Program-made: the position numbers and the translations under genes
Source of the DNA: an uncultured Candidatus Saccharibacteria bacterium
GTDB lineage: Bacteria; Patescibacteriota; Saccharimonadia; Saccharimonadales; AWTP1-31
Assembly (NCBI GenBank): GCA_964409615.1
Contig: CAYPDT010000002.1
Location: 1,226 to 65,225 of the forward strand
Direction: 5' to 3'
Length of the DNA stretch: 64,000 nt
The notes under the pieces: generated by a model
What the model was told of the DNA's origin: nothing
Seen by the model: the letters and a program-made list of their open reading frames with translations, nothing else
The model's database searches: none
Part shown: in pieces, positions 13,114 to 52,307 of the stretch
How the letters are laid out: each line of letters starts with the position of its first letter
Position numbering within the stretch: the stretch's first letter is position 1

Positions 13114-13387
13114 ATACTTCTCCTTGGCACATGTGCGCCATTTATCGTTAGAATATATGGGATATCTCTGAAGGATTTGTATCCTTATAAAAGAGTATCG
13201 TCCCGGTTTCGCTACTTGCTCCCCGTATATCCAAGCGACCAGATACAGATAAACGGATCATTACACGACGGTTTACGTCTATAGCATAATACTACTTTTA
13301 TAACATTTTGTCAATATATGCTGTAGTCTTTCTTGCAGACCCAACAGGGCAAGTCTGGTACCTATTTGATTAGTCCAACATTATATC

Positions 13388-19107: not shown

Positions 19108-19356
19108 ATGAATGAAAATATAGAAAACACTAGGTCAGGGATGCAAGACACCGTTTATCGTCTGCAGGCAGAAATTGCCTATCAACTGTACCAAGAGCAA
19201 ATACAAGCAGCTCGAGCAAGACAAAGTCGTCTCGAACAATATCTGGCGAACCTGACACAAAAAGAGGTGATTGTTGGCGAATTTTACATTCCCCGCAATT
19301 TTGATGAAGCCTGTGCGATTCATGATGCAGGAGGAGCTGTATATGGCATTTGTTAA
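19108..19356 (+). CDS. hypothetical protein (82 aa) overlapping the trpB start
   Basis: The ATG at 19108 follows the hairpin. Predicted coiled-coil-like QAEIAYQLYQEQIQAARARQSRLEQYL. The 3' end overlaps trpB by 14 nt. Confidence 0.4.
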   Translation: MNENIENTRSGMQDTVYRLQAEIAYQLYQEQIQAARARQSRLEQYLANLTQKEVIVGEFYIPRNFDEACAIHDAGGAVYGIC

Positions 19357-20563
19357 GTCGAGTACGTACTTCGGTCAGTTTGGTGGGAGGTACGTACCAG
19401 AAATGTTACAACCGACATTAGAGGAGGTAGCAAAAGTCTACGATAAACTTCGGCGTTCGCCAAAATTCATTGCTGAGCTACAAGACTTGCAAACAAGTTT
19501 CAATAATCGCCCGACTCCGCTCGTGGAAGCCCAAAACATCACTCGAAAGTTAGGGGGTGCTCGGATTTTCCTCAAGAACGAAGGGCTCAACCACACAGGA
19601 GCGCACAAGATAAACCACTGTCTTGGGCAAGCTCTTGTTGCAAAACACCTGGGGAAGCGACGCTTGATAGCCGAGACCGGCGCCGGGCAGCATGGCGTAG
19701 CCACCGCGACCGTTGCAGCTAAGTTCGGGTTTGAGTGTACGGTTTACATGGGTAAAAAAGATATCCAGCGACAACGCCCGAACGTAGTCTTAATGGGGCT
19801 ACTAGGCGCTGAAGTTGTTTCTGTAGACACCGGTAGCCAAACCTTGAAAGACGCTGTAAGTGCAGCTCTAAAAGACTTGTTACAACATGCCGACACAAGC
19901 CATTACGTTATCGGGTCTTGCCTGGGGCCAGATCCATATCCACGGATGAACCGAGACTTTCAATCAATCATTGGTAAAGAAGTTGCTCAACAGATACCTG
20001 TAAAGCCAACTCATATAATTGCTTGTGTAGGTGGTGGCAGCAATGCGCTTGGTATATTTACTGAGTTTCTAGCAGATACCTCGATTAGGCTTATCGGAGT
20101 AGAGGCCGGCGGAGTTGGCTCAAAAGCAGGTCAACATGCGTGTCGCTTCCCGCATGCTTCGGTAGGTATAATGGAAGGCTATAAATCGTACTTCTTGCAA
20201 GATGACGATGGTAATCAGGGAAAAACGCACAGCATTGCTGCCGGGCTTGATTACCTCGGTATTGGACCTGAGCTTGCCGAACTTCACGATATCAAGCGGG
20301 TTGAGTTTGTCAGCATCAAGGACGAGGATGCACTTGCCGCTGTTAAAACACTCGCCACATTCGAAGGCATCGTCCCCGCACTAGAGTCTGCACATGCTGT
20401 TGCTTACGCCTTAAAACTCAGTGCCACTCTGGGCAAGAATGACGTGGTGGTTGTTAATATTTCTGGCAGAGGCGACAAAGATATGTTTGCCTTGGCACGA
20501 AATTTCGACGGAGCAAACTTTAAGAGATATCTAATAGAGGAGGTGCAAAGATATGGAAAATAA
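19343..20563 (+). CDS. trpB: tryptophan synthase beta chain
   Basis: FGQFGGRYVPE, HTGAHKINH (PLP Lys) and GGGSNALG motifs. GGAGG lies 8 nt upstream of the ATG at 19343. Confidence 0.93.
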   Translation: MAFVKSSTYFGQFGGRYVPEMLQPTLEEVAKVYDKLRRSPKFIAELQDLQTSFNNRPTPLVEAQNITRKLGGARIFLKNEGLNHTGAHKINHCLGQALVAKHLGKRRLIAETGAGQHGVATATVAAKFGFECTVYMGKKDIQRQRPNVVLMGLLGAEVVSVDTGSQTLKDAVSAALKDLLQHADTSHYVIGSCLGPDPYPRMNRDFQSIIGKEVAQQIPVKPTHIIACVGGGSNALGIFTEFLADTSIRLIGVEAGGVGSKAGQHACRFPHASVGIMEGYKSYFLQDDDGNQGKTHSIAAGLDYLGIGPELAELHDIKRVEFVSIKDEDALAAVKTLATFEGIVPALESAHAVAYALKLSATLGKNDVVVVNISGRGDKDMFALARNFDGANFKRYLIEEVQRYGK

Positions 20564-21299
20564 TGTTTTTGCACACGTTGTGGCTGGCTATCCTAGTCGT
20601 AAAGAATGCCTCGCATTTTTAAAGGGAGCGGCTCAGCTCGGCGTTGCAGCACTAGAAGTTCAAATTCCATTTTCCGACCCCAGTGCAGATGGGCCTGTCA
20701 TTATGAGAGCTAACGACCAGGCACTCGCCAACCGAACAACCATACTCGATAGCATGGCTATCATTAAACAAGTACATCAAGACTATCCGACGTTACCGCT
20801 ATATGTCATGAGTTACAGCAATAAAGTATATGCCTATGGTATCCAAAAATTCTGCATCCTGGCTAAGCAAAGTGGTGCAGCCGGGCTGATTGTGCCAGAC
20901 CTACCAATCGATTCAACGGAATATAGAATCTTGCGTGAATCGACTAAGAAGCATGGGCTACGGTTAGTGCCTGTTTTAACACCTGGAATGGCAATCTCGC
21001 GACATAAGTTATATGCACAAGAAAAGCCCAACCTAGTGTATATAACAAGCACTCGTGGAATCACTGGCAACGTGGCTGACACTCAGCAAAGTCTCAAAAA
21101 ATTTATTGCCGAGCATCGAAAAATGAACCAGTCTAGCATAGTCGTAGGCTTTGGTATCCAATCTGCTTTGCAGGTACGCGACACGTTGAAGTGCAGCGAT
21201 TACGTGGTTATCGGCAGCGCAATCACCCAGGAGCTTGGTCTCCATGGAGTAAACGGCGCGCTGGATCTATTGCAAGAATTATGTACAATAACGAATTAG
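20553..21299 (+). CDS. trpA: tryptophan synthase alpha chain
   Basis: LEVQIPFSDPSADGPVI motif; overlaps trpB by 11 nt; 248 aa. Confidence 0.88.
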   Translation: MENNVFAHVVAGYPSRKECLAFLKGAAQLGVAALEVQIPFSDPSADGPVIMRANDQALANRTTILDSMAIIKQVHQDYPTLPLYVMSYSNKVYAYGIQKFCILAKQSGAAGLIVPDLPIDSTEYRILRESTKKHGLRLVPVLTPGMAISRHKLYAQEKPNLVYITSTRGITGNVADTQQSLKKFIAEHRKMNQSSIVVGFGIQSALQVRDTLKCSDYVVIGSAITQELGLHGVNGALDLLQELCTITN

Positions 21300-26921: not shown

Positions 26922-28460
26922 TTAATTATGAATGCTACCGTTACGCAGGTCAGCGTCAAGAGGGAAGCCGGAACTAACAATACTAGCAACAGGCGCCAGT
27001 ACTACATTGCCTTCACTGAATCGAAACGCCGAGAGTGGTGAGGGCTGCAGAACAGCCGTAAGCTGAAAGTCTTCTAATTCAACCTCTCGCTCTCCGTCTG
27101 CAGGAGCTGTTTCGGTGTTCACGATAAATCCGAGTAAATTGCATTCCAAGGCATACTCCTCGCCGACTCGAATATCACCTTCGTCCATCCCGAGAAATTC
27201 AATAGCGCCATCTGCGAGAAGACTATCCCCGTCTAGCACTGTAGCTAGTTCGTAGTTCGAATCTCTACTAAGTCGTACAAATATCTGGTTGGCCATGTTG
27301 TACGTGAGATTCACCACTGTATCGGCGTTTAGTTCTTGAATCATTTCACGAGCTTTTTTCATCGCGCCATCGTAGTCGTGAGGATTATTCTGAAGTATTT
27401 CAGCAAGTGGCACACAAAAGCCCTGCAGTTGCATACCAAACAATGACTGATCAGCTTCATGAATGCCATGTTGCTCGATACTACCGTCAAGCACCTTAGA
27501 TACAGGTACGGCCACATACGATTCGCCGTCTGACGTATCTTCATCAGTCATAATCATGGCGAACATCTCTGGTGCCTCTTCACCATCTAAATCTTCATCA
27601 AACTCTACATGGTATCCCATAAACCAGCCTGCAAGGCGTTTAACCCTCGGGATATCGGTAATTTCACAATACTGTTCACTTCCAGTTAGAACACTGCGGA
27701 ATACCCCGTCCGCAATGGCAAGCTGTACGCGGCGGTGGCGGGCCGGGTTTGCCTCGGCTAGTTCTTCGGCCATCTTATCGGCTACATCCCACCGTGCAGC
27801 ATAGGATGTTTCATCATCTTCGTCATCTTCATCATGCTGACGTACTAGGTCGTGAAAAGCTGCAAATGTCTGCGAATCAGCTAAAAACGGTCCGTCGGGG
27901 TCAGTGAACAATACATAGTCGACTGCAGTATGAGGAATTTCTACATAGGCCGTATCTGGATCAAGTTGTGAATCAGGCGGCAACCTAAATGGTCTCATTT
28001 TCAGGCCCACACCAATTTGAACCGGTTTGTCATCAATATGCAGTGGGACTGCCAAACTTTCGGTGCGTATGTCAGAACGCAACACGAGCTCGTCCATTGC
28101 ATCTTCGACACTAAATAGCGTAGGACTAAGGTCAGGGGAATCGAAGTCGGCCGATACATAAACCCCTTCTAGGGTACCTACCAATGAGTTGGGGGCCGAG
28201 ACCATTTCAGCCAGTCCCGAAGCGTCCCTTAGCAATACGACTGCCTCACCGTCTTCAAAAGATGTAAAATCAATTTGCACTACCTGGCCAGCAAGGTGCG
28301 ACTCGGCGAACTCTGCTTCGAGCTGGGCTTGCACTTCGGGGTATGTCCAGCGGTAGTCGTAGCCAGTCTCTACATCTCGTAGTTCAACCCGTTGGGCTGA
28401 CTCTACAGCTAGGCGTTCGTATTCTTCGAATGCCACACAATATACTCGTAAATCATTCAC
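26922..28460 (-). CDS. hypothetical, strongly acidic 512-aa cytoplasmic protein
   Basis: Long uninterrupted ORF rich in Asp/Glu (for example QHDEDDEDDETS). No TM segment, signal peptide or known motif. Confidence 0.6.
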   Translation of the reverse strand: MNDLRVYCVAFEEYERLAVESAQRVELRDVETGYDYRWTYPEVQAQLEAEFAESHLAGQVVQIDFTSFEDGEAVVLLRDASGLAEMVSAPNSLVGTLEGVYVSADFDSPDLSPTLFSVEDAMDELVLRSDIRTESLAVPLHIDDKPVQIGVGLKMRPFRLPPDSQLDPDTAYVEIPHTAVDYVLFTDPDGPFLADSQTFAAFHDLVRQHDEDDEDDETSYAARWDVADKMAEELAEANPARHRRVQLAIADGVFRSVLTGSEQYCEITDIPRVKRLAGWFMGYHVEFDEDLDGEEAPEMFAMIMTDEDTSDGESYVAVPVSKVLDGSIEQHGIHEADQSLFGMQLQGFCVPLAEILQNNPHDYDGAMKKAREMIQELNADTVVNLTYNMANQIFVRLSRDSNYELATVLDGDSLLADGAIEFLGMDEGDIRVGEEYALECNLLGFIVNTETAPADGEREVELEDFQLTAVLQPSPLSAFRFSEGNVVLAPVASIVSSGFPLDADLRNGSIHN

Positions 28461-28563: not shown

Positions 28564-29880
28564 TTATTGACCAATACCTCGGTAGACTATGCCCGCAGCC
28601 ACTATTGCGTCACGATCCAGGCAATTTCGCCCATCCAGCACGTAACGCACATTATGTTTCTTGAGCTTTTTTGCACTAAAATACTCTAAATATGCAGCAT
28701 GCGCCGAAGCCACGAACAAAACATCTACTTTTTCTAACAATTCTTCAATCCCGGAAGCTATGAGTACATTGGCTACTTCGTCTTGGATGATACTATCTTC
28801 AATATATGGGTCGTGCACCAGTAGAGTTGTTTTGCCATGAAGAATTTTTGCCACTTCAATCGCCGGGCTGCGCCGCATATCGCCAACATTGGGCTTGTAC
28901 GAAAGACCAGCTAGTCCGATTTTCATATCCTGCAAGCTCCGACCGTCTGCTTGTAAAATTTTCTCTAGTGATTCAACGGCATATGCCGGCATACCGTCGT
29001 TGAGTCGGGCAGCACTGGCTAAAAAGTTGGTGTCTACGCCAGCAGAATGAGCTTTTTGAATGACATAGTGTATATCTTCCGGGATGCAATGACCTCCCGG
29101 CCCAATACCTGGCTGCGCCAGGCTCAAGCCAAATTGGTCAACCTTCGATTGTAAACCACGCATTACATTGCTTACATCCATACCCAGCGCATCACAAATG
29201 ATAGCCGCTTCGTTTGCCAGGGCAATCATAACGTTTCGATGACTATTCTCCCACGACTTGGTAAACTCAGCTTCTTCCGAAGAACCAAGCGCAATGATAC
29301 GAGCATCGATTATTGTTTCATAAAACTCAACAGCTTTTGCAGTACAAGCCTCAGTAATACCACCTACAACTCGGTTAAGATTACCGACAAACCACTGACT
29401 GTTACCAGGATCAATTCGCTCCGGACAATGGGCCAAAAATATATCCTCGCCAATAGTTAAGCCGCTCACTCGTTCTAATATTGGTGCAATCAGGTCACGA
29501 GTAACGCCGGGGTTAACGGTACTTTCTAGCACAATCAATTGACCCGACCGAGCATGTACTGCAACCGATTCTACTGCGCTTTGTACCAAACTTAAGTCTG
29601 GAACATTGTTGTTGGTAGGTGTGGGAACACAAATTATCACAACGTCGGCCTGCTGAAGTGAGTCGTAGGAATCGCTAACCGTAAAAGTCTTGGAAGATAT
29701 GTTTTCTAAAGCACTGGCGAAACGTTGGTCATTAACATACGGTGACTGCCGAGCAGAAATTTTGGTTAGCAGTTGTTTATTTTTATCGACTCCATAAACG
29801 CGATAGCCCTTTTCGGCAGCTTGTACTGCGAGTGGTAAACCAACATAACCCAAACCAACAACAGCCAAGTTTTTTGTCAT
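28564..29880 (-). CDS. nucleotide-sugar 6-dehydrogenase (UDP-glucose/GDP-mannose dehydrogenase family)
   Basis: N-terminal VVGLGYVGLPLA Rossmann motif, catalytic-Cys region GPGGHCIPED, 438 aa. Confidence 0.85.
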   Translation of the reverse strand: MTKNLAVVGLGYVGLPLAVQAAEKGYRVYGVDKNKQLLTKISARQSPYVNDQRFASALENISSKTFTVSDSYDSLQQADVVIICVPTPTNNNVPDLSLVQSAVESVAVHARSGQLIVLESTVNPGVTRDLIAPILERVSGLTIGEDIFLAHCPERIDPGNSQWFVGNLNRVVGGITEACTAKAVEFYETIIDARIIALGSSEEAEFTKSWENSHRNVMIALANEAAIICDALGMDVSNVMRGLQSKVDQFGLSLAQPGIGPGGHCIPEDIHYVIQKAHSAGVDTNFLASAARLNDGMPAYAVESLEKILQADGRSLQDMKIGLAGLSYKPNVGDMRRSPAIEVAKILHGKTTLLVHDPYIEDSIIQDEVANVLIASGIEELLEKVDVLFVASAHAAYLEYFSAKKLKKHNVRYVLDGRNCLDRDAIVAAGIVYRGIGQ

Positions 29881-29926: not shown

Positions 29927-30784
29927 CTACATCAACTGCAAGATAATAATGATAGTAATGCAAAAGCCCACTAATTGATTGATTTTCATAAAGTGCCGCC
30001 AACCACCATTGGTCCGAGCAGAATGCTTGTCGCTGATAGAAAGGTAGGGTGAAACAATCAATGGATATAGCAAGCCAGCAACCGCAACTATTAGCGATGG
30101 CCATCCCTGCCATGCAATCAATACAACTGCTAAAATATACTGCACAAAGCTAATCCTCACGGTTGCCGATGCGCCGAGTGCCGTTGCAATGGAGTGTAAT
30201 CCTGCTTTACGGTCCGGAATAATATCCTGCACTGCACCAAAGGCATGACTAGCCATGCCCCATAAGAAAAATGCAGCGACGTAGGGCCACCAGCCCGCGG
30301 GCCAACCTGTTAAACTCAAAGCAAACAACAGTGGGCTTACAAAATGAAAACTAGACGAAACAGAATCAATAACCGGCCGTTCTTTAAAACGAAGCTTCGG
30401 CACACTATATGCTGCTGCATCAAAAATAGAAAGCGCCAGAACTAGCCAGCTAAAGCCACTCCCCGCAACAAGCAGATACAGCACAAAAGGAACATTACAC
30501 ACAATCACAGCCCAGAACATAAAACGGTGCAGTTCTTTCGGTAACACCGCACCTTCTACGCCACCCTTACGAGGATTTTGCATGTCTGATTCGTAATCAT
30601 AAATGTCGTTAATGACATAAATCAGCATGTTGTAGGGAATCAAAAAATAGAACGTGGCCACCCAAAACAAAACAGGAACGTCCGTTCCATGCGCCAGTAA
30701 ATATCCGGCAGCAAATGGGAAGGCAGTGTTAATCCACGAGACAGGCCTCGATGACCATAGTAGTGTTTTAAGCTTTTTTTTCAT
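29927..30784 (-). CDS. crtEb: UbiA-family prenyltransferase, lycopene elongase (CrtEb-like)
   Basis: VINDIYDYESD (NDxxDxxxD UbiA motif), about 8 TM helices, 17-nt overlap with the upstream cyclase subunit gene. Confidence 0.7.
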   Translation of the reverse strand: MKKKLKTLLWSSRPVSWINTAFPFAAGYLLAHGTDVPVLFWVATFYFLIPYNMLIYVINDIYDYESDMQNPRKGGVEGAVLPKELHRFMFWAVIVCNVPFVLYLLVAGSGFSWLVLALSIFDAAAYSVPKLRFKERPVIDSVSSSFHFVSPLLFALSLTGWPAGWWPYVAAFFLWGMASHAFGAVQDIIPDRKAGLHSIATALGASATVRISFVQYILAVVLIAWQGWPSLIVAVAGLLYPLIVSPYLSISDKHSARTNGGWRHFMKINQLVGFCITIIIILQLM

Positions 30785-31067
30785 ACGATCTCCATAGTAG
30801 CGGAATTAATAAGCCAGCCGCTAATGCATAGGCGAAATCTTCTATGGGTGCCTGGAACACATTTACACGCAAAGTGAATTCTCGGTTGTAAGCGACTATA
30901 CCGGCAGCAATTATTAACGGGTCAAAGATGGCAGTCAGTATACTTACAACCAAAGTCGAATGTAGTGCGTTGTTGGTAAATGTGTCGCGGCTGTATTTTT
31001 TTTGCCAACAAAAAATTACTACTACCGCTAACAAAACTATTCCATTTAGTAATATGTAGCGCATCAT
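30768..31067 (-). CDS. crtYf: carotenoid cyclase small subunit (lycopene cyclase domain, CrtYf-like)
   Basis: About 99-aa 3-TM protein with PIEDFAYALA (the PxE[ED] cyclase-domain motif). ATGA overlap with crtYe at 31064-31067. The track start at 31121 is rejected. Confidence 0.7.
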   Translation of the reverse strand: MMRYILLNGIVLLAVVVIFCWQKKYSRDTFTNNALHSTLVVSILTAIFDPLIIAAGIVAYNREFTLRVNVFQAPIEDFAYALAAGLLIPLLWRSYEKKA

Positions 31068-31375
31068 GATACCCGCTTTCTGGTTTCTAAGAAGCGGAAT
31101 ACAATCAAAACCGAGTAACAAAGCACCGTCAGAAAGAATAGTTCCTCGAGCGGGAATTGTCCTATGCGTATACCCGTCAGAAACCGAGTTTTACCAATGA
31201 AAAATATATTCATTACAATGCCGGCCACGTCCCAGACTACAAAAAACAACAAGCCCGACGATATTGTCTTTATGGCTCGACCCATGTCATAAAAAAATGC
31301 CAACTTGTAACGCCAATCAATCAAAGATAAGCAGCCTATCACTGAAACAAGGGCAATCAAATATGCAAGCCTCAT
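31064..31375 (-). CDS. crtYe: carotenoid cyclase small subunit (lycopene cyclase domain, CrtYe-like)
   Basis: 103-aa 3-TM protein with FPLEELFFL motif; 4-nt overlap with crtI. Confidence 0.7.
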   Translation of the reverse strand: MRLAYLIALVSVIGCLSLIDWRYKLAFFYDMGRAIKTISSGLLFFVVWDVAGIVMNIFFIGKTRFLTGIRIGQFPLEELFFLTVLCYSVLIVFRFLETRKRVS

Positions 31376-32883
31376 AGCAGCTCCGGAAGCGTCTGTAGAG
31401 GCCCAGCAGTTTTGTCACTTGCTAGTGACTTAATAACCAGCTCTGCGCTAATTAAGCACATTGGTACACCTATGCCCGGCTGCGTCATACCACCAACATA
31501 GTACAAATTCGAAACTTTTTTACTGCGAATATTCGGACGCAAAAAAGCGCTCTGAAGTAGTGTGTGATTCAGACCCAAAGCCGAACCTTGCCATGCATTA
31601 AACGCCGACTCAAATTCTGCCGGGCCACGCACTTCTTGTGTCACTATGCGTTGCCTGAAATCGGCTATACCTGACTGTTCAGCCAACTGATCTAGATACC
31701 GGGCAATCAGTTGCTCTTGTGTTTTTGCTGTCATTTTTTTACCCGGGGGTAGGGGTACAAGTACAAAAACATTTTCATGACCTTTTGGCGCAACACTTGC
31801 ATCACTGGCAGATGTCTTGCTCACATACATAGAGGCTTTCTCAGGCCACTGACTATTGTTATAAATGTCATCAAAATTCTGCCGCCATGCATCTACAAAA
31901 AATAAATTATGGTGTTTCAATTCTGGTAAAGCACCGCGTATTCCTAAGTACAGCAACAACCCGGCTGGTGCTGCTTTCTTCTTTTTCCAATAAGCTTCTG
32001 GGTATGTTTGATGCGGTGCACTCAGCAGCTTTGTTTCGGTGAAGGCAAGATCAGCGTTAGAGATAACAATATCGGCAGTGTGTAGTTTTCCGGCAACCAT
32101 CACACCTACTGCTTTACCATCTACCACTTCAATCGATTGGATTGAATTATTCAAACGATATGTAACTTCCAATTTCTTTCCTGCTGATACGAGCGCTTCG
32201 GTAACCTTGTACATACCGCCTTTTGGGAAGAAAACTCCTTGCTCGAAGTCAAGGTAACTCATTAGGCGATACAACGAAGGAGCATCGAAAGGTGATGTGC
32301 CCAAAAAGACCATGGCGTATTCCATGATTTGCTGAAGTTGCTTGGTTGCAAACTTGCGGCGCACATGGCTATGTAGAGACCCTGTTAATCCACCTAGCAA
32401 ACGTTTGGAGTGGCGGGCTATTGCACGATTCGTGACCAGCGGTTTGACCGAGCGGAATGGATTATATAAAAAATTAGCAATCGCTAATTGATAGATTGTG
32501 CGGGCCTCATCTACGTATTCTGTCAGGCGCTGCCCCGCACCAGCCTCGAGACCTTCAAACGTCTTACTGTCTGTCGCAACATCGCCTTTTACGACGATTG
32601 GCTTGGCATAGTCGAAAAATACCTTGTAGGCTGGTGACAGTTTTTGTAGTTTGTAGAAGTCATTTGGCCTATGGCCGAGCAGAGAAAAGTAATGCTCAAA
32701 GACCTCAGGCATTAGGTACCAAGACGGGCCACTGTCGAAGGTAAAACCATCTCGTTTGAGTAGCCCCATACGCCCACCGAGTCGACTATTCTTCTCAAAA
32801 ACTTCAACAGTATACCCAGCTTTAGCTAATAAATTTGCAACCGCCAATCCACCTGCACCGGCTCCAATGACAATAGCTTTCAT
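31372..32883 (-). CDS. crtI: phytoene desaturase
   Basis: MKAIVIGAGAGGLAVANLLAKAGYTVEVFEKNSRLGGR FAD fold; C-terminal YYVGGMTQPGIGVPMCLIS. Confidence 0.9.
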   Translation of the reverse strand: MKAIVIGAGAGGLAVANLLAKAGYTVEVFEKNSRLGGRMGLLKRDGFTFDSGPSWYLMPEVFEHYFSLLGHRPNDFYKLQKLSPAYKVFFDYAKPIVVKGDVATDSKTFEGLEAGAGQRLTEYVDEARTIYQLAIANFLYNPFRSVKPLVTNRAIARHSKRLLGGLTGSLHSHVRRKFATKQLQQIMEYAMVFLGTSPFDAPSLYRLMSYLDFEQGVFFPKGGMYKVTEALVSAGKKLEVTYRLNNSIQSIEVVDGKAVGVMVAGKLHTADIVISNADLAFTETKLLSAPHQTYPEAYWKKKKAAPAGLLLYLGIRGALPELKHHNLFFVDAWRQNFDDIYNNSQWPEKASMYVSKTSASDASVAPKGHENVFVLVPLPPGKKMTAKTQEQLIARYLDQLAEQSGIADFRQRIVTQEVRGPAEFESAFNAWQGSALGLNHTLLQSAFLRPNIRSKKVSNLYYVGGMTQPGIGVPMCLISAELVIKSLASDKTAGPLQTLPELL

Positions 32884-33704
32884 AGTAGCCCCGCTTTAAC
32901 TCGTACTAGTAATAGAACCTTCTGCCAGTCGGCCACTCGAATGCGCTGCTGTTTGATTCGCTCAGCTGGGGTTGCTTTTAGTTTTTGCAGGAGGGCCGAA
33001 TAATATATGTACGATGCCTTGACTGCTTTTTGTGCAGAAGCTGGCAACTGCTCAATGGCTATCTTGGCTGTAGCAAAGTCGGCAGAAATATCTGCAACAA
33101 TGGCTTCTTTGGTTGCTTCATCAAATGCCTTAAATGTACCAACGGGGAAGTAATAGCGACCTAAACGTTCGTGATCATCGTGTATATCACGTAAAAAGTT
33201 CACCTTCTGATAAGCAGCGCCCAACGCCCGGGCTCCTGGTTCAAGCTTTTTATATTCTGCGTTATCACCTTGGCAAAATACTTTCAGACACATAAGGCCC
33301 ACCACTTCGGCGGAGCCATAAATATACTGCTGATACTTATCAACCGTGTAGCGTTTTGCACCGGTGTCCATGCGCATGCTTTCGATAAATGGCGCAATCA
33401 AAGTCTTACTAATACCAAACTGTAAGCACGTGCTGACAAAGGCATGGATAACTAGATTCGTACTATAGCCTCTTGTTAGGTCTTGGTAGGTTTGTTGCTC
33501 GAAAGCGTCAAGCAGCGCCAACCGGTCTTTGCCTGTATAGGTATCGACGATTTCGTCCGCCACTCGAACAAAGCCATAAATATTATAAATATCTTGCCGA
33601 ATTTGTTTAGCAAACAAACGTGAAGCCATCCCAAACGAGGTCGAATAACGCTGTGTCATGAGCCGACTGACTTCCTCGGAAGTTGATAAGTATAAATCTG
33701 CCAT
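32880..33704 (-). CDS. crtB: phytoene synthase
   Basis: YSTSFGMASRLF, YGFVRVADEIVD and NFLRDIHDDHERLGRYYFP motifs. Confidence 0.9.
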   Translation of the reverse strand: MADLYLSTSEEVSRLMTQRYSTSFGMASRLFAKQIRQDIYNIYGFVRVADEIVDTYTGKDRLALLDAFEQQTYQDLTRGYSTNLVIHAFVSTCLQFGISKTLIAPFIESMRMDTGAKRYTVDKYQQYIYGSAEVVGLMCLKVFCQGDNAEYKKLEPGARALGAAYQKVNFLRDIHDDHERLGRYYFPVGTFKAFDEATKEAIVADISADFATAKIAIEQLPASAQKAVKASYIYYSALLQKLKATPAERIKQQRIRVADWQKVLLLVRVKAGLL

Positions 33705-34777
33705 TAGCTGTTCCTACTGAGCATTTTTGTAATCAGGTCGAGTAGTGCTTGTTTAGCATTTTCATGCATACTCAATTCCCTAATCAGCTTTTGGGCTTCT
33801 TCTGATAGCTGCTTTGCTTCATGCATAACGGCATTTTTAGCGCCCGAAATAGTCAATAATTCGAGCGCGCGCATAATATCTTGTTGGCTCATCTCATGAT
33901 GCACATCGTAAAGTGCTATAAGTTCTTGTTGCTGCTCTTTGTTCAGACGATTGCAGGCTTCTTGCACTAGCACAGTGCGCTTGCGCTCCCGTATGTCGGT
34001 AACCGTGGATTTTCCTGTTTGCTGTGCTTGGCCGAATACTCCAAGTACGTCATCGACTAGCTGGAATGCAATGCCGAGTTTTTCGCCTATTTTCCGTAGA
34101 GACCGCAAATCATCTCCATCAACACCAGCCAATACAGCTCCGCTCAGCAAGGGAAGCTGGAAGGTGTAGCCCGCCGTTTTATACAAAGCAATGGTGCGAG
34201 CATTTGTTGCGTCGAGTGGGTACAAAACCGACTCGGCATCGAGCAATTCGCCGCCTCCAACCATAAAAATAGCCTCGTTGAGGAGTTGCAAAATAGCGAC
34301 CTTGGCATCGGCGTCGAGCTTTGCATTCAATACTATTTGCTGAGAGTACGAAATCAGTAAATCACCAGCCAACAAAGCACTCGAAAGGGCGTAATGTTCG
34401 ACATTAATGGATGCTGCCTGGTTATATACTTCGCAGTAGCGACCAAATATATTAAGAGCACCGTGTCGCATATCATCACGATCTATTATGTCATCGTGCA
34501 CAAGCAGTGCAGCATGAAGCAATTCCCAAGCCGATGCTACCGGCAAAATGTCGGGAGTTTTCTGGCCGCCATAGCCCTGGTAAGTAAGAATTGCAAGGTG
34601 AGGTCGTAAATGCTTACCGCCTGCCGCCAGGTACGACTGCATGATTGCTAACATCTGTTGGTACGATGGGTCTACTACAGTTGCTCGTTGCAGTTCTGTT
34701 GCCAAAAATTCGTCAAGAAACACGTCGACCTGTGTTTTGGTCTGCGTTAACGAATACACCTTATCTGCAGTTATCAT
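33704..34777 (-). CDS. crtE: polyprenyl (geranylgeranyl) diphosphate synthase
   Basis: FARM LLVHDDIIDRDDMRHG and SARM FQLVDDVLG motifs. First gene of the crt string. Confidence 0.85.
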   Translation of the reverse strand: MITADKVYSLTQTKTQVDVFLDEFLATELQRATVVDPSYQQMLAIMQSYLAAGGKHLRPHLAILTYQGYGGQKTPDILPVASAWELLHAALLVHDDIIDRDDMRHGALNIFGRYCEVYNQAASINVEHYALSSALLAGDLLISYSQQIVLNAKLDADAKVAILQLLNEAIFMVGGGELLDAESVLYPLDATNARTIALYKTAGYTFQLPLLSGAVLAGVDGDDLRSLRKIGEKLGIAFQLVDDVLGVFGQAQQTGKSTVTDIRERKRTVLVQEACNRLNKEQQQELIALYDVHHEMSQQDIMRALELLTISGAKNAVMHEAKQLSEEAQKLIRELSMHENAKQALLDLITKMLSRNS

Positions 34778-34943
34778 ATTACTTTTACTATACCGGTATA
34801 GGGGTGGTTTTACTATAAAAATAACCTTTGGTCATTATCTAGCTTATTGCATATTTAGAATATGCTTCCGGCGAAGACCATATTGCGGATGCCCTGGCTC
34901 GAAGCAAGCCTCGTACGTAACACACTAGTGATATTCTACGTAT

Positions 34944-36921: not shown

Positions 36922-37500
36922 TTAACCTTCTGTGATACCCAACAATCTTAAGGCTTCCTCATTCTGCTCTTGTGAATCGCATACATGAAAAACATTGTCT
37001 ATCATGGGTAAGCATTTATTGCGATATGCCTCATCGTCCAATAGCAAATCAGAGTCATCAACCGCCATGTATGGTCTACTAAGCAATCCTCTGACTCCTG
37101 CAGCTTGTGATACGGTAAGCCCCTCAGAATTAAATGTTTCAGCAGAACCCTTTAGAGCTTCATAGAATTGTGGCATTTCTTGAGTACTCCCATGAAACAC
37201 ATAAGGTAAAAAAGCGACTCTTCCTAAGTAGCGTTCCATGATGATTGGAAAATATCGTCTATCTTGTTTATCTTCATAAAATACTTTCAGTAAAGTTTCG
37301 CCAACAGTGCAGGTTCGTAAATCTCGAATAACAGCAGGCCTTGTTTCAACCCTTCCAATAAAAATCCTAAGTGGGTCATGTTCATCCAGTCGCTCAGAAG
37401 TTTTTCCGCCATTTATAATATCGGAAACCAGCGGATCCAGTGTCGCGCTAAAGGCGTGGGGCTTCACCATTACTAGACCGGTCTGTTGCTCTCTACTCAT
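36922..37500 (-). CDS. nucleoside diphosphate kinase-fold protein (divergent, with insertions)
   Basis: LVMVKPHAF, FYEDKQDRRYFPIIMERYL and NVFHVCDSQE align by eye with NDK IIKPNAV, FYAEH..FF..LVEFM and NGTHGSDSVE. Confidence 0.5.
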   Translation of the reverse strand: MSREQQTGLVMVKPHAFSATLDPLVSDIINGGKTSERLDEHDPLRIFIGRVETRPAVIRDLRTCTVGETLLKVFYEDKQDRRYFPIIMERYLGRVAFLPYVFHGSTQEMPQFYEALKGSAETFNSEGLTVSQAAGVRGLLSRPYMAVDDSDLLLDDEAYRNKCLPMIDNVFHVCDSQEQNEEALRLLGITEG

Positions 37501-38227
37501 TACCTAAATCCCTAATCATATGGGTGAGTAACTTTCTCTCAGGCTTTAAAAATAGTGCTGTTCGTTGTTGATAGACTTTTAGTAGGTCTTTATGTTGTTT
37601 GAGCAAATCCCCGTAGTCGGTACTAATACCAATTGAAATATCGAAGCCTGCACGCTTAATAATTAGACGTAAAGCTTCCGGCGAATGGCTTTCAAATTCA
37701 ACATATACACCCATATTGTCAGGAAAGTAATCTACAGTAGCATTATCTTTACCAAGACTAAAGTTCTCGCGGTACTTAGCGAGCAAAATGCGCTGTTTTG
37801 TGAACCCTAAAAGCCTGCACGCTCGGCGAACTTCCTCAAGTGTCCTAGCATCAGTGATTGTCTTATCTAAACTCAATCCTACGTGAGATTGTAAAAGCTT
37901 ATTAATCGTTACAATCATCTCCGTATCTGGCTTATGTAGGTCGGTCTCGTATTCACGAAAGTGCAATATTTTGCCATCGTCCTGCTTAACCTTCAATGTC
38001 AGAAGGAGTTCTTGTGAACTAACATTTTCGACCTGCCTAAAGCGCAACAATATCTTTGCGTTCTTGCAAGCATCATCGGAGGTATCGGGCAGATAATCAG
38101 TTTCTATCGCACGAGTGCCCGCATGAAAGCCTACCCGCTGCAGTTTTTCACGCATTGCCGGTATGACACCTCGCTGAGTGCCAATTTTGAATTTTAACTC
38201 GTATTCATGCCTTTGTTTGCTAGACAT
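37493..38227 (-). CDS. CYTH-domain (triphosphate tunnel metalloenzyme) protein
   Basis: HEYELKFKI N-terminal ExExK signature, plus LLRFRQ, LTLKVK and REYETDL beta-strand motifs. The ATG at 38227 overlaps the upstream stop by 8 nt. Confidence 0.6.
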   Translation of the reverse strand: MSSKQRHEYELKFKIGTQRGVIPAMREKLQRVGFHAGTRAIETDYLPDTSDDACKNAKILLRFRQVENVSSQELLLTLKVKQDDGKILHFREYETDLHKPDTEMIVTINKLLQSHVGLSLDKTITDARTLEEVRRACRLLGFTKQRILLAKYRENFSLGKDNATVDYFPDNMGVYVEFESHSPEALRLIIKRAGFDISIGISTDYGDLLKQHKDLLKVYQQRTALFLKPERKLLTHMIRDLGNE

Positions 38228-40376
38228 GCACCCCACCTTTCTTGACTATGAACGGATTATACTCATCAGAATTATCAATAACAATGTCGGCGATATCAAC
38301 TGGACGGACAGCTTCTAGATAACGTTCCTGCGCCGGTATATAACGAGTCAAGTATTTTTTAAGGACATTAAAACCAAAGCGAGGTACGTCCCGTTCAATT
38401 GCCCTTAGGCGCATTTCTGACAAAGGAATATCAACAAATATTTTGGAGTCGAAGTAATCAGCCAGTTCAGGACGAAAAACGAACACCCCTTCGACTATAA
38501 CAACTGAGGGGCCATCACTAAATGCATAACTATGTTCTATTATCTCTGATGGATTGTGCGGACTCTGGTGTTTAAGCGCAACCGCACCAAGCTGATGTGA
38601 AGTTAAAGGTGCGAGTATGGATTTACGTAATGTCTCAATATCAAATGTATTATTGTAGTATCGCTCTACTGGGTCACTTGAAGTATTGCGTAACCAATCC
38701 GGTTGAGTAAAATCATCCACATGTATGACAACCACTGGCAACCCATGAGCCTCTAACTGCCTCTCTAGTCCACTTGAAAACGTCGTTTTGCCAGAACAGT
38801 CCACCCCGTTAATGCCGACCACGAAAGGTCTTTCTGAGTCGAACGCCTGCATTGCAATATTTTGCGCAACTTCTGTAGTAACTAAGTCTGTCTTATTTGG
38901 AGCCTCACTAAGCATTACATGTTGTGTCTCCTGTTCGGACATGAATCCCAGGCCCTGGTAATCAAGTGCGTGCTGATTTTCTCTGTACATGCGCTCGAGT
39001 GCCTGATATCCCCCCAAGTCTTTTGCGGCTGCTACCTTAATTGCCGAAAGTATATCTCTAATTTGACTCTTGAATTGCCGCCGAGCCTCTACAGGCTCCT
39101 CTTGGCTAATAAACCTATCAATAAGCTGGGCAAATGGTACACAAGCTCCAATTCGATAGCCTTTCTGGTCCACAATTCTATCCATATCGAGTTCAAGACC
39201 AAAAGTATCGTGGTATATAGAAAGCCACAACAAAGGTCCAATAAGTGACATGTCTAATTCATCCAGCGATTCTGTTAGATTCTGACTTGACCATTCCGCC
39301 ATCTCAGATTGCCATTCATTGTATCTTGTCCTACTCTGACCTAAATCAACAGTTTGATGCAAGTGCTCCCAATACGCACCCATATCAGTGAAGATGTAAT
39401 GGGTGCCGACATCCTGCCAATATCCCTGTTCAGTTCTTATACTATTTTCAAATGGATATAGCACTCCCCCTCGAAGTACTTCGTGGAATGGTGATTCGAG
39501 GTCAACACTTTTTATATCCGAACTTAGCGTAGTCAGACGCATATTAAGAGGGTTGCCTCCACAGGCAGTCATCAAAATTGCCAAACTATATAAGGTACGC
39601 CCGCGATAGAATAAGTCATCCAAGAAATAGATTGGCTCATCACGTCGTAGTGTCTCGGCTACTGACGTTCCGTGCATGAGTGCAGTAATAGCTCGGCAAT
39701 CAGGGATTGTTAAACCTGTTTCAATACAAGCCACAGCATCAGACAGCTCTGTTTGTAGATTTTCATCAGCTGCAGACGAGCTGAAAGGACCCTCTAGATT
39801 TACGTTACCTACGACCTGTAACAATTCCGCACGTGTCATTGTTGAAGCAGCGTCAATCATATCATTAGATAAAAAGGGAATAACCTCCCTAAGTTGCTCA
39901 ATCTCTACTAACGACAGTCGCTCTTCTGGGGTAAGTATTGTTAATAGCTGTGCGCTAAGGGGCGCCTTTTCGACAGACATGACCTTAATATCAGCGATTT
40001 TACTATCATATACATCTGCGGCATATGCATTCACATAACGATTTCCGCCCTGGATAATAAAGCGCGATTGACTATCTGTATGCGTAAGCCACTCGTCCAC
40101 CGCTCCCATTAACTCGCGACGCGATAGCCTATCACCTGGGCGAGTAGTGTACCTGCCAGGTATCGGGGGTCGTACTAGCAGTGGTCGTTGCGGAGAATAT
40201 TCACCCCGAGCTATCTCAAGTTCCATTTTTGTTGTTTCTACCAAATTTGGGAGACCAAGTTGTGTAATTTCCACTAACAATGCTTCTTCGGGAGCTTCCG
40301 ATATTTCGAGCTCAAAAGAGTCAAGTTCACCCTCTTGAAAAGATGGTAGCGAGCTCTCAAATAACTGGTCGGTCAT
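38220..40376 (-). CDS. 718-aa fusion protein: unknown N-terminal region, PRTase-like segment, and C-terminal uridine-kinase/PRK-type P-loop kinase
   Basis: C-terminal Walker A GINGVDCSGKTTF and VVIVEGVFVFRPEL (Udk/PRK-like). Central IYFLDDLFYRGRTL resembles the type I PRTase PRPP loop. Residues 1-250 are not assignable. Confidence 0.55.
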   Translation of the reverse strand: MTDQLFESSLPSFQEGELDSFELEISEAPEEALLVEITQLGLPNLVETTKMELEIARGEYSPQRPLLVRPPIPGRYTTRPGDRLSRRELMGAVDEWLTHTDSQSRFIIQGGNRYVNAYAADVYDSKIADIKVMSVEKAPLSAQLLTILTPEERLSLVEIEQLREVIPFLSNDMIDAASTMTRAELLQVVGNVNLEGPFSSSAADENLQTELSDAVACIETGLTIPDCRAITALMHGTSVAETLRRDEPIYFLDDLFYRGRTLYSLAILMTACGGNPLNMRLTTLSSDIKSVDLESPFHEVLRGGVLYPFENSIRTEQGYWQDVGTHYIFTDMGAYWEHLHQTVDLGQSRTRYNEWQSEMAEWSSQNLTESLDELDMSLIGPLLWLSIYHDTFGLELDMDRIVDQKGYRIGACVPFAQLIDRFISQEEPVEARRQFKSQIRDILSAIKVAAAKDLGGYQALERMYRENQHALDYQGLGFMSEQETQHVMLSEAPNKTDLVTTEVAQNIAMQAFDSERPFVVGINGVDCSGKTTFSSGLERQLEAHGLPVVVIHVDDFTQPDWLRNTSSDPVERYYNNTFDIETLRKSILAPLTSHQLGAVALKHQSPHNPSEIIEHSYAFSDGPSVVIVEGVFVFRPELADYFDSKIFVDIPLSEMRLRAIERDVPRFGFNVLKKYLTRYIPAQERYLEAVRPVDIADIVIDNSDEYNPFIVKKGGVHV

Positions 40377-41846: not shown

Positions 41847-42416
41847 ATGAAAGTATCCAACAAATCGCTTTGGACGACCGTAACAATTGGTTCATCTGTT
41901 GGACTTATTGCATCATTAATTCAAACAATTGAACGAATAAATAGTGCTCTAAACCCAAAAGTAGCTTTAAGTTGTGACCTGAATTCAATATTCAGCTGCA
42001 CTAATGTCTTTAATGCTTGGCAATCACGTGTTTTTGGTTTTTCCAATTCACTAATATGTATGATCTTCTTTGCGACTACTGCCGGGCTAGCGCTTGCAGC
42101 GCTTACTGGTAGCAAACTTAACTTAAAGTTGCGATACGTCTTCCAATTTTTCTCAGTTTTTTTCCTTGCTTTTGGAGCTTGGTATTTATGGCAAAGCACA
42201 TTCCGTATTGGCTACATTTGTATTTTCTGCATATTTTGCTACAGCGCAGTTATCGCTATGAACTGGGCATGGTTTAGGATTAACTACAAAGATTACAAGT
42301 TAAGTAAGAATATGAAGACAAAAATCCAACAATTTGTAGACAACGGTGGAGATATATTTATCGCCATCATTTGGGCAATAGTCATTGCTGCAATGATTAT
42401 CTTCAAGTTCTGGTAA
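41847..42416 (+). CDS. vitamin K epoxide reductase (VKOR) family membrane protein
   Basis: Four or five TM helices, a loop Cys pair (SCDLNSIFSC) and CIFC (CxxC) in a TM helix. Confidence 0.6.
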   Translation: MKVSNKSLWTTVTIGSSVGLIASLIQTIERINSALNPKVALSCDLNSIFSCTNVFNAWQSRVFGFSNSLICMIFFATTAGLALAALTGSKLNLKLRYVFQFFSVFFLAFGAWYLWQSTFRIGYICIFCIFCYSAVIAMNWAWFRINYKDYKLSKNMKTKIQQFVDNGGDIFIAIIWAIVIAAMIIFKFW

Positions 42417-48862: not shown

Positions 48863-48900
48863 AACAGCGATAGGTGGGTGGATGTCGTATAATAAGACTA

Positions 48901-49707
48901 ATGATAATTATTGGCATCACAGGGTCTATCGGGCATGGCAAAACAAGTTTGGCTAAAGCATTCTTACGTCAAGTCTCTCCAGCTCAACATACTGAATCAA
49001 GTATCTTAATAAGCCGTGTTGCCGACGAGCTCAATAAAAGTTTTCCTATCGCCAACCCTACTTCGGGTGATATCGCATCAATTAATGCCTGGCTAAGTGG
49101 CCTGCCTGAAATTCTTCGGCAGGTTGCTCATTTCGCTGGAACCATTAATCCAATTCGTCTGAGCGCTGAGCCGGTTGTAGTTGCTGATCAAGATTTCCAA
49201 AAACTCCATGAATACCTAGAGCTCGTTGAAAAAAATCACTCATTAATCACACAAATTATTACGCCAGATAATAAAGATGAATACCGGCCGATACTGCAAT
49301 GGTTGGGTGCCTACATTACAAAACACGTTAGTCCTACACTTTGGTACGATGAACTTATTCGACAGGCCGCAACGGCCGAAGCTAGTGGTTGTGAATTATT
49401 CGTTATCGGCGGTATCCGATTTCCTAGCGACGGCCAGGTAATTCACCAAGCGGGAGGGCTTATCGTTGCTATCGAAAGGCCAAACATCACACAACAAGAT
49501 GCCGAAGATGCCACTGAAGCGTTTCGTTCTATGGTACCTGTCGATACAACTGTTATAAATGATGGCGCTCTGGGAGCACTCGACCATGCCGTCTATACCA
49601 TTTGGCAGGATATAAAGAACGACAATCTGCAAACACGCTATCAAGTATCACGTTTGGCATTTGATGCTACGCAATCGCCCACTATACAGGGCCGCGATAT
49701 TTTATAA
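48901..49707 (+). CDS. P-loop kinase, dephospho-CoA kinase (CoaE)-like N-terminus with a long C-terminal region
   Basis: MIIIGITGSIGHGKTSLA matches the CoaE-type GxTGxxGxGKT(S) motif. At 268 aa it is longer than a typical CoaE. Confidence 0.5.
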   Translation: MIIIGITGSIGHGKTSLAKAFLRQVSPAQHTESSILISRVADELNKSFPIANPTSGDIASINAWLSGLPEILRQVAHFAGTINPIRLSAEPVVVADQDFQKLHEYLELVEKNHSLITQIITPDNKDEYRPILQWLGAYITKHVSPTLWYDELIRQAATAEASGCELFVIGGIRFPSDGQVIHQAGGLIVAIERPNITQQDAEDATEAFRSMVPVDTTVINDGALGALDHAVYTIWQDIKNDNLQTRYQVSRLAFDATQSPTIQGRDIL

Positions 49708-49713
49708 AAACCT

Positions 49714-50367
49714 TTATTCTTTGGTTGCAGGGAAGTCGGCTTTGAGCTTTTTGATGTCACCTGACGTAATGCACTCAATTTCGGTTTCTCGTTCGTTGCC
49801 CACGCTCGCCACATCCACTCCTTCGATGATATCGCGCTGGTGGTATCGGCTCTTGCGTGCAGTCACTTTGTCGCCTAAGGCTTCAAAAACGAGCTGACAG
49901 AATCGTTCGCCAGGATATAATCGGACTGTCTGTTGCTGGGTGTTATTGCGAATAGGGATAACTAACTGACCTTCATAGCCACTATCGACAATGCCTGTTT
50001 GGTCAACTGAAATTCCTTTGCGGTTAGTAGACGAACGAGGGTACATAACGGCCATAAGGTCATCGGGCACCTTAATACTCTCGAGTGAAGAAACTAAGAT
50101 ATGTTCGCCGGGCAATAAGTCAAAAAACTGACCTTTTTCTAACTCAATAATGTCGAAGTATTCTGGTTGAGTTTCGGCAAAAAAGTCTAGATGAATCTGC
50201 TCGCGCCCGCCAGCCGTAACATGCCACGACTTTGGGACTAAAAAGGTAAAACCGAGTCGTAAATCTACCGCATGAGCTTGAAGCTGAAAACTATCGAGTC
50301 CCGGCTTAAAACCTAGCGTGCCAGCCGAAACATACTCTAAAATTTGTTGTTTGGTTAGAACCGCCAT
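49714..50367 (-). CDS. dCTP deaminase/dUTPase superfamily protein (Dcd-like length, dUTPase-like motif 3)
   Basis: VDLRLG, YPRSSTNRKGI and GIVDSGYEGQLVIPIRN..YPGERFCQLVF motifs. Confidence 0.7.
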   Translation of the reverse strand: MAVLTKQQILEYVSAGTLGFKPGLDSFQLQAHAVDLRLGFTFLVPKSWHVTAGGREQIHLDFFAETQPEYFDIIELEKGQFFDLLPGEHILVSSLESIKVPDDLMAVMYPRSSTNRKGISVDQTGIVDSGYEGQLVIPIRNNTQQQTVRLYPGERFCQLVFEALGDKVTARKSRYHQRDIIEGVDVASVGNERETEIECITSGDIKKLKADFPATKE

Positions 50368-50859
50368 TTACAGTACCTCATATTCAAGCAACAGTGTATC
50401 ACGGTTAAGTTGCCGACTATTAGCAAGTTGAAGGGTGCAATCCAGAGCATCATTGAATAATGTCATGCCCGCTCCAAACAGCTTGGGCTCGAGCGTTAGG
50501 TATAATCGGTCTACTAAACCAGCTTTCATAAACAATGTATAAATTTGTTGCCCGCCACAGATTGCGATGTCTTTAAACCCGTCGCTGTGTAGCCGTGCGA
50601 TTAAAGCACCGGGTTCTTCTGTAGTTGCCTCCAGGTCCGGCAGCTGCAGTTGTTGCCGGGTCATAACAACGGTACGTCGACCTGGCAATGCTCGTCCTAT
50701 AGTCTTAAAGGTTGTGTGACCCATAATCATAACGCCCGCCTTTTTTGTAAGTTCCACAAAAACTTTCTTGTCTTCGGCGCTTGTCCAATCAGCCAGGTGC
50801 TCAGCGTCTTGTGCGATAAAACCATCGGCAGTAACGGCAGCAATAATAAATACGCTCAT
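50368..50859 (-). CDS. folA: dihydrofolate reductase (FolA/RibD_C-like)
   Basis: IIAAVTADGFIA, MIMGHTTFKTIGRALPGRRTVVMTR and ICGGQQIY align with the FolA pattern. Overlaps the ThyA-family gene by 4 nt. Confidence 0.7.
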   Translation of the reverse strand: MSVFIIAAVTADGFIAQDAEHLADWTSAEDKKVFVELTKKAGVMIMGHTTFKTIGRALPGRRTVVMTRQQLQLPDLEATTEEPGALIARLHSDGFKDIAICGGQQIYTLFMKAGLVDRLYLTLEPKLFGAGMTLFNDALDCTLQLANSRQLNRDTLLLEYEVL

Positions 50860-51692: not shown

Positions 51693-51730
51693 TGTATTCA
51701 GATTATAAATAACTTACCCTTGAATTGACA

Positions 51731-52240: not shown

Positions 52241-52307
52241 CGAGTAATCCGGGTACAATACAAGTAACAATGTGGGGCTTAATCTTGGTTTACAGGAGGG
52301 AGTACAC

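Follow-up and report, generated by a model that had tools for sequence, protein, structure and literature searches.

How could a bacterium of the Candidate Phyla Radiation (CPR) come to carry a complete set of genes for a C50 carotenoid, and could it use them? To our knowledge, CPR bacteria are generally portrayed as almost unable to synthesise membrane components. The question is raised by a 64-kb stretch of DNA, here termed the window (64,000 nucleotides; positions 1,226 to 65,225 of contig CAYPDT010000002.1, assembly GCA_964409615.1), from an uncultured Candidatus Saccharibacteria bacterium. Six contiguous and overlapping open reading frames (ORFs) were found on its minus strand at positions 29927-34777, in the order crtE-crtB-crtI-crtYe-crtYf-crtEb. 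By comparison of these sequences with characterised systems, we consider it probable that the six genes, translationally coupled in one operon of a Saccharibacterium chromosome, are functional and direct the synthesis of a cyclic C50 carotenoid, and that the operon shares its ancestry with the actinobacterial C50 cluster via an ancient transfer.

The lycopene-forming part of the cluster includes three genes. The crtE gene (33704..34777, minus strand, as are all six; 357 aa) encodes a trans-polyprenyl diphosphate synthase, predicted to be a geranylgeranyl diphosphate (GGPP) synthase (Pfam PF00348, 170 bits). It is followed by the genes for a phytoene synthase, crtB (32880..33704; 274 aa; Pfam SQS_PSY, 147 bits), and a phytoene desaturase, crtI (31372..32883; 503 aa; TIGR02734, 504 bits against a cutoff of 238). 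Downstream of them are the genes for two small proteins assigned to the heterodimeric C50 carotenoid cyclase, a crtYe-type subunit (31064..31375; 103 aa) and a crtYf-type subunit (30768..31067; 99 aa), and the crtEb gene for a UbiA-family lycopene elongase (29927..30784; 285 aa; NF009608, 384 bits against a cutoff of 217). From crtE to crtEb, successive junctions overlap by 1, 4, 4, 4 and 17 bases, and the six genes thus look translationally coupled. The intergenic region upstream of crtE (34778..34943, minus strand) is a likely promoter region, shared with a divergent His_Phos_1 gene. It contains a promoter-like sequence TAGATA-18-TATAGT (minus strand 34841..34812, 9/12 positions); such sites are no commoner than in shuffles, and this one is a positional hint only. 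The first-pass annotation of this DNA had described six minus-strand genes of these families in this order. All the ORFs lie where it placed them, their Pfam and NCBIfam families match, and the motifs FPLEELFF, PIEDFAY and NDIYDYESD that it named are all found in the sequence.

The first aspartate-rich motif of CrtE is DDIID, with small residues at positions -4 and -5, and its second motif is DDVLGVFG. A GGPP synthase with DDxxD twice had been proposed; one DDxxD is present, and the second Asp-rich motif reads DDVLG instead, belonging to a DDxLGVFG variant common to all aligned CrtE proteins of the syntenic actinobacterial and Saccharibacteria clusters. CrtE is 28-41% identical to actinobacterial CrtE and 36-50% to that of Saccharibacteria. 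The respective values for CrtB are 38-45% against the CrtB proteins of syntenic actinobacterial clusters and 52-62% against the Saccharibacteria copies. CrtI, with Amino_oxidase and NAD_binding_8 domains, is 40-43% identical to the actinobacterial CrtI at the same cluster position, and it is the sole member of its family in the window; no second CrtI-family gene (crtD) was found in these 64 kb. The assignment of crtE, crtB and crtI to one operon with the elongase comes from family-level matches and from collinearity with four actinobacterial clusters.

Both small proteins match the lycopene cyclase domain model TIGR03462 above its cutoff of 39.4 bits (49.5 bits for the 103-aa protein and 40.8 bits for the 99-aa protein; the latter also matches PF18916 with 39.6 bits), in agreement with the two proteins of about 100 aa expected from the first pass. 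They represent two distinct types, one subunit of each, CrtYe/CrtYg/LbtA and CrtYf/CrtYh/LbtB, and adjoin the elongase. The first keeps the WD..G and P(L/I)EE(L)FF motifs and is 43-44% identical to CrtYe, 35% to CrtYg and 34% to LbtA. The second keeps the FD and P(I/V)ED(F/L)xY motifs; its identity is 50% over 60 aa to Micrococcus luteus CrtYh, 37.5% over 88 aa to Dietzia LbtB and 32-33% to Corynebacterium CrtYf. The two subunits thus have their best matches in different reference systems, and for this reason the ring type (epsilon, gamma or beta) is unreadable from the sequence. The crtYf gene almost certainly starts at ATG 31067, giving 99 aa, rather than at TTG 31121, which would give an ORF of 117 aa, since the former start makes an ATGA overlap with the crtYe stop as in Corynebacterium, and the alignment with CrtYf, CrtYh and LbtB begins there. 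The 99-aa form is also called in independent assemblies.

The elongase was compared with characterised proteins whose reference DNA (C. glutamicum, C. efficiens, Dietzia and M. luteus) was taken from the supplement of PMC6393565. Over the full length, identity is highest with C. glutamicum CrtEb (48.4%) and Dietzia LbtC (48.2%), followed by C. efficiens CrtEb (45.9%) and M. luteus CrtE2 (43.9%). NF009608 is the top model also for the Corynebacterium, Microbacterium and Herbiconiux homologues. The protein has the motifs NDIYDYESD at residues 59-67 and DIIPD at residues 187-191. The residues N59-D60-xx-D63-xxx-D67 and D187-xxx-D191 are invariant in 131 aligned homologues (111 of the Saccharibacteria type and 20 actinobacterial or reference proteins), and this invariance of the catalytic residues in all 131 sequences argues for continued function. 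A search of the PDB with the elongase gave a sole, distant match, AfUbiA 4TQ3 (E = 5e-4). As a separate observation, the wider elongase family is small, with 114 representatives at E <= 1e-30 (proteins P0244-P0393 of the representative search), many of which are fusions: N-terminal additions span about 100-145 aa, the Dietzia LbtBC reference being among these, and C-terminal ones about 250-430 aa.

The pathway chemistry is proposed from that of the homologous enzymes characterised in Corynebacterium, Micrococcus and Dietzia (PMC6393565, PMC3598387). CrtE would make GGPP, two molecules of which would be condensed by CrtB to phytoene; desaturation by CrtI would then yield lycopene. CrtEb would add a C5 unit from dimethylallyl diphosphate (DMAPP) to both lycopene ends, giving an acyclic C50 carotenoid of the flavuxanthin type, and the CrtYe/CrtYf heterodimer would cyclise both ends to a pigment of the decaprenoxanthin, sarcinaxanthin or C.p.450 type. 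The likely role of such a pigment would be membrane reinforcement or protection from light or oxidants, in a cell unable to make its own lipids.

A different product could be expected if the small proteins formed a CrtYc/Yd-type lycopene beta-cyclase, with the pathway stopping at C40 and the UbiA protein prenylating another substrate, for example a quinone precursor. CrtYe/Yf are homologous to CrtYc/Yd (PMC2889829), and TIGR03462 does not tell them apart. Database names point the same way: public annotations call the elongase a '4-hydroxybenzoate polyprenyltransferase', the name used by JGI, or a 'prenyltransferase', and a 2024 study listed crtB, crtE, crtYf and 'ubiA, ubiquinone' as gains in a Saccharimonas metagenome-assembled genome (PMC11484240). 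The family scores do not support the 4-hydroxybenzoate name for CrtEb. None of the 4-hydroxybenzoate, menaquinone and archaeal-lipid prenyltransferase models passed on this protein (20-45 bits against cutoffs of 269-392); for the quinone models, the scores are 34.9 for TIGR01474 (cutoff 275), 24.4 for NF041585 (375) and 21.6 for NF009526 (364). Moreover, the UbiA gene shares 17 bases with crtYf, its position is kept in every locus examined, and its product is 44-48% identical to proven lycopene elongases; the cyclase references compared were all of the C50 types. Altogether, a C40 product is unlikely. The identification of the UbiA protein as a lycopene elongase was borne out by the family scores and by the tree described below, in which it groups with lycopene elongases, apart from MenA- and heme-O-type enzymes.

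An acyclic C50 product of the bacterioruberin type, with the UbiA protein acting as a LyeJ-like elongase/hydratase, was proposed for Patescibacteria of Lake Baikal, where a 2023 study found hits to lyeJ, crtD and cruF, also in one Saccharibacteria genome, and took them to indicate bacterioruberin synthesis (PMC9948471). The UbiA protein of the window indeed also matches NF009516/PRK12875 with 144.5 bits. This score is below the cutoff of 205 and far under the 384 bits of NF009608; two cyclase subunits, unused in the bacterioruberin pathway, stand between crtI and crtEb; and crtD is absent from the window, as is any CruF-like family among the scanned ORFs. On these grounds the bacterioruberin reading fails, and we consider it quite improbable.

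The proposed cyclic C50 operon resides in a genome that is CPR-like, as the first pass had suggested. SecY (10177-11655) shows 73-100% identity to the 120 matches listed, of which the named ones (73-85%) are all Candidatus Saccharibacteria or Saccharimonadales. The genes for S5 (8918-9553) and L15 (9553-10029) abut, with no L30 gene between them; absence of L30 is a CPR signature. The window also contains the S10-spc-alpha ribosomal protein operon, an L10 leader and four tRNAs, and no 16S rRNA gene was found in it. By these markers, the source organism is a Saccharibacterium of the CPR/Patescibacteria, a small and probably host-dependent bacterium.

Homologous clusters were found in other Saccharibacteria and in Actinobacteria. 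The best 120 homologues of CrtEb are 53-68% identical to it; about 105 are low in GC and Saccharibacteria-like in amino-acid composition (hereafter, Saccharibacteria-type), and about a dozen are actinobacterial-like, including Herbiconiux at 54-55%. The named members of the low-GC set are all Saccharibacteria. Seven further loci of the Saccharibacteria type were inspected (L007, L016/17, L018, L019-L022), and 7/7 have all six genes, arranged as in the window. In one of these, L021, an apparent CrtYf-CrtEb fusion (a 352-aa 'UbiA') was rejected as an over-long ORF call, the two parts being in different frames. The cluster-bearing contigs include ones of 631 kb and 1.29 Mb from NCBI Saccharibacteria assemblies and one of 382 kb from JGI. 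Among the complete Saccharibacteria genomes that bear the cluster are GCA_003508055.1 and GCA_016789455.1. The housekeeping neighbours vary by locus among Saccharibacteria (pyk-pgk-tpi, topA-dprA, mraY-ftsW-murG, cysS). A single-protein scan with one genome per species returned nine loci, too few for a survey of distribution; its actinobacterial matches, in Pengzhenrongella, Cryobacterium, Microbacterium and Corynebacterium dentalis, all have the order crtE-crtB-crtI-crtYe-crtYf-crtEb. Each of the six Crt proteins of the window resembles its counterparts in other Saccharibacteria more than those of any actinobacterium.

The composition of the cluster was compared with that of the other 59 genes of the window (GC 0.468 ± 0.027; GC at third codon positions, GC3, 0.431 ± 0.043). 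The six genes have GC of 0.39-0.47 and GC3 of 0.38-0.48; in the two short cyclase genes, GC (0.39 and 0.42) is about two to three standard deviations under the mean, and the other values are within the spread. The tetranucleotide correlation of the cluster with the whole window, 0.886, is typical of the window. The pooled relative synonymous codon usage (RSCU) of the cluster correlates with that of the rest of the window at r = 0.55, against a null mean of 0.86. Foreign codon usage was considered as an explanation of this gap and rejected, the per-gene fit being within the range of non-ribosomal genes. The gap runs along the axis of ribosomal-protein, i.e. highly expressed, genes, and the cluster groups with the weakly expressed, non-ribosomal ones. 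The comparison of GC and codon usage with other genes that had been recommended at the outset thus gave a match to the window: the cluster is compositionally native to this Saccharibacteria genome.

These data bear on a recent horizontal acquisition of the cluster by the source organism from an actinobacterial host. Cultured Saccharibacteria are known to have actinobacterial hosts (PMC9296517), Actinobacteria contain the nearest characterised homologues, and the low pooled RSCU correlation might be taken for a foreign signature. Set against this are GC and GC3 near the window background, compared with a GC of 57-72% in the actinobacterial loci, the typical tetranucleotide usage and per-gene codon fit, and the closer similarity to Saccharibacteria copies of six proteins out of six, which together make a recent acquisition very improbable. 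The remaining alternative, an actinobacterial fragment joined to a CPR contig in assembly or binning, has nothing in its favour beyond the actinobacterial flavour of the pathway and next to no probability, since six independent assemblies from different samples (four JGI metagenomes, 3300045347/50/52/56; one SRA run, SRR12404947; and one ENA assembly, ERZ15186094) are collinear with window positions 19927-40784 over both cluster borders at 99.7-100% identity, the ribosomal operon and SecY (73-93% to Saccharibacteria) are in the same 64-kb sequence, and the composition is uniform. Mis-binning, raised as a concern in the first pass, is excluded by the same evidence. The six near-identical assemblies have three variable sites in the cluster, too few for a selection test.

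To place the elongase among its homologues, a neighbour-joining (NJ) tree of 195 sequences was built with our own numpy code and midpoint rooting, including 63 cluster representatives and the characterised references. The window protein falls within a 111-member Saccharibacteria-type clade (bootstrap 63). Its sister clade of 27 members (bootstrap 65) contains all four characterised enzymes and all named Actinobacteria. A nesting of Actinobacteria within the Saccharibacteria type, seen in a first tree made from the top 120 hits with one archaeal outgroup, was rejected as an artefact of sampling and rooting once references and representatives were added. CrtEb proteins of the Saccharibacteria type have a median identity of 52% to one another and of 50% to those of Actinobacteria.

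Any transfer between the two phyla is likely to be ancient, because the composition is native, the same gene order is found in many Saccharibacteria, the divergence among them equals that from Actinobacteria, and they form a group of their own. The best reading of these sequences would be an ancient sharing between the two phyla, in which the transfer could have gone in either direction, followed by a long vertical and rearranging history in Saccharibacteria. The suggested acquisition from an actinobacterial host or neighbour is supported in part only: Actinobacteria are the nearest characterised relatives, but the cluster is native in composition, widespread, and grouped beside Actinobacteria rather than nested within them (with weak support).

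Several points weigh against a functional cyclic C50 operon of anciently shared origin. Since CrtE and CrtB score under all NCBIfam equivalog cutoffs, the chain length made by CrtE and the specificities of both enzymes rest on context, and the product of every Saccharibacteria cluster is a prediction. Most of the Saccharibacteria-type homologues were labelled by amino-acid composition alone, without taxonomy. The union of the Saccharibacteria-type and actinobacterial clades in the NJ tree has a moderate support of 52%. Under Dayhoff-6 recoding, intended to remove compositional bias, the two groups remain apart, and support falls to 11-28%. A further point is the supply of C5 units, because published Saccharibacteria were reported without a pathway to isopentenyl diphosphate (IPP) and none was found in the window. 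A complete rhizosphere Saccharibacteria genome has no route to IPP, from which scavenging was inferred in the original study (PMC6031116); in Saccharimonadia, the C10-C20 steps alone were detected by a survey of freshwater CPR (PMC9166423). No genes of the methylerythritol phosphate (MEP) or mevalonate pathways were found in the 64-kb window, which is only a part of the genome. One pigment molecule would consume ten C5 units.

We speculate that environmental Saccharibacteria could make a membrane-spanning cyclic C50 carotenoid without an IPP/DMAPP pathway of their own, using C5 units derived from the host, and that this might be an old, vertically kept trait, which could as well have been donated to Actinobacteria as received from them. 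We put this forward tentatively, as a possible rather than a probable scenario. If true, the pigment would make it visible and measurable that phosphorylated isoprenoid precursors, or prenols, pass from the host to its epibiont.

Although the C50 pathway itself is well known, it has not been described as such in Saccharibacteria in the searchable literature. The genes had been noticed before: the studies that reported bacterioruberin genes (PMC9948471) and carotenoid gene gains (PMC11484240) probably describe a cluster of the present type, perhaps mis-assigned. The view that pigment synthesis is unexpected here is therefore softened by these two lists, and it remains surprising for CPR biology. 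The conservation, wide occurrence and apparent integrity of a six-enzyme pathway suggest an investment in a specialised membrane lipid, at least by environmental Saccharibacteria, and point to a selective force in the form of exposure to light, oxygen or cold. The cluster also sharpens the question of the source of isoprenoid precursors in Saccharibacteria, and offers a testable case of ancient gene sharing between them and their usual host phylum.

Among the scanned genes beside the cluster, no MarR/CrtR-type regulator was found. At other Saccharibacteria loci, a divergent set of a CHASE-HisKA histidine kinase, a response regulator and a Crp/cNMP-binding regulator precedes the crt cluster (L016/L017, 2422-5336; L018, 2811-5807). 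These are candidate pigment regulators in two Saccharibacteria, and none of them is located beside the cluster of the window. Directly downstream of crtEb, on the same strand and after a gap of 46 bp, is the gene for a UDP-glucose 6-dehydrogenase (28564-29880), followed by one for a 512-aa acidic protein without a Pfam family (26922-28460, minus strand). Both are linked to the cluster only in the source species and not at other Saccharibacteria loci.

Other features of the window are listed here briefly. A match to the c-di-GMP-II-GAG riboswitch (13192-13277, minus strand; 42.1 bits against a gathering score of 40) is located directly upstream of a 431-aa ORF without a Pfam family (11818-13113, minus strand), which could be a gene controlled by a cyclic dinucleotide. 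TrpB and TrpA are encoded at 19271-21299 with no other trp genes nearby, followed by a class Ib tRNA synthetase (Pfam labels); their isolated presence suggests indole salvage in an otherwise auxotrophic cell. On the minus strand, a string of genes (37493-40376) includes one for a protein of 718 aa whose only domain match is a weak one, to uridine kinase/PRK at the C-terminus; this gene overlaps those for a CYTH-domain protein and an aminotransferase. A VKOR family protein (41847-42416) is worth noting where quinone synthesis is not expected. In the 339-aa ORF for ribosomal protein L1 (47718-48737), the L1 domain covers residues 141-329 only, so that the ORF either has an N-terminal extension of about 110-140 aa or its start was called too early. 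It is followed by a nucleotide-metabolism block (48874-54644) with a deoxynucleoside monophosphate kinase, a dCTP deaminase, a dihydrofolate reductase, ThyA (50856-51692) and a 790-aa thymidylate kinase-ThyX fusion (52272-54644), in which both types of thymidylate synthase, ThyA and ThyX, are found side by side.

Compared with known systems, the cluster has partial counterparts among C40 cyclases and acyclic C50 pathways. The CrtYc/CrtYd lycopene beta-cyclases of C40 clusters, e.g. in Brevibacterium, are likewise built from two small membrane proteins that belong to this domain family (PMC2889829); their clusters have no adjacent elongase, in contrast to the window. The bacterioruberin pathway (LyeJ-CrtD-CruF) of haloarchaea and Arthrobacter also starts at lycopene with a related C5 elongase of the UbiA family. 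However, it needs CrtD and CruF and no cyclase, whereas the window cluster has two cyclase subunits.

Closer similarity is seen to the clusters for cyclic C50 carotenoids. In Dietzia sp. CQ4, the lbtA-lbtBC genes for C.p.450, a beta-cyclic C50 carotenoid, encode a homologous elongase (LbtC) and homologous cyclase parts (LbtA and LbtB); there, the elongase and the second cyclase subunit form a single in-frame fusion, whereas in the window the two are separate genes in different frames with a 17-base overlap. The sarcinaxanthin genes crtE2-crtYg-crtYh of M. luteus encode a homologous elongase and cyclase subunits, and CrtYh is the best match of the second cyclase subunit of the window. The M. 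luteus elongase gene precedes the cyclase genes, whereas that of the window follows them. The M. luteus cluster presumably also contains a crtX glycosyltransferase gene; no glycosyltransferase gene was found among the scanned genes neighbouring the window cluster.

The decaprenoxanthin producers are the nearest in layout. C. glutamicum makes its IPP by the MEP pathway. The host of the window cluster, a Saccharibacterium with 45% GC, is unlike Corynebacterium. Actinobacterial clusters commonly, though not as a defining feature, have a divergent MarR-type regulator, CrtR (PMC5401885), where the window has a His_Phos_1 phosphatase gene upstream. C. glutamicum also has cg0722, an MmpL-like gene, between crtE and crtB, which the window cluster does not. 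Otherwise, the operons of C. glutamicum and C. efficiens contain the same six enzymes in the same order (PMC6393565, PMC3598387), and that of C. glutamicum likewise has the cyclase subunits and the elongase at its 3' end, in the order Ye-Yf-Eb and with 4-base overlaps. By the genes that it contains, their order and overlaps, and their similarity to those of characterised enzymes, the window cluster is thus of the actinobacterial cyclic C50 type to which it had been assigned at first sight.

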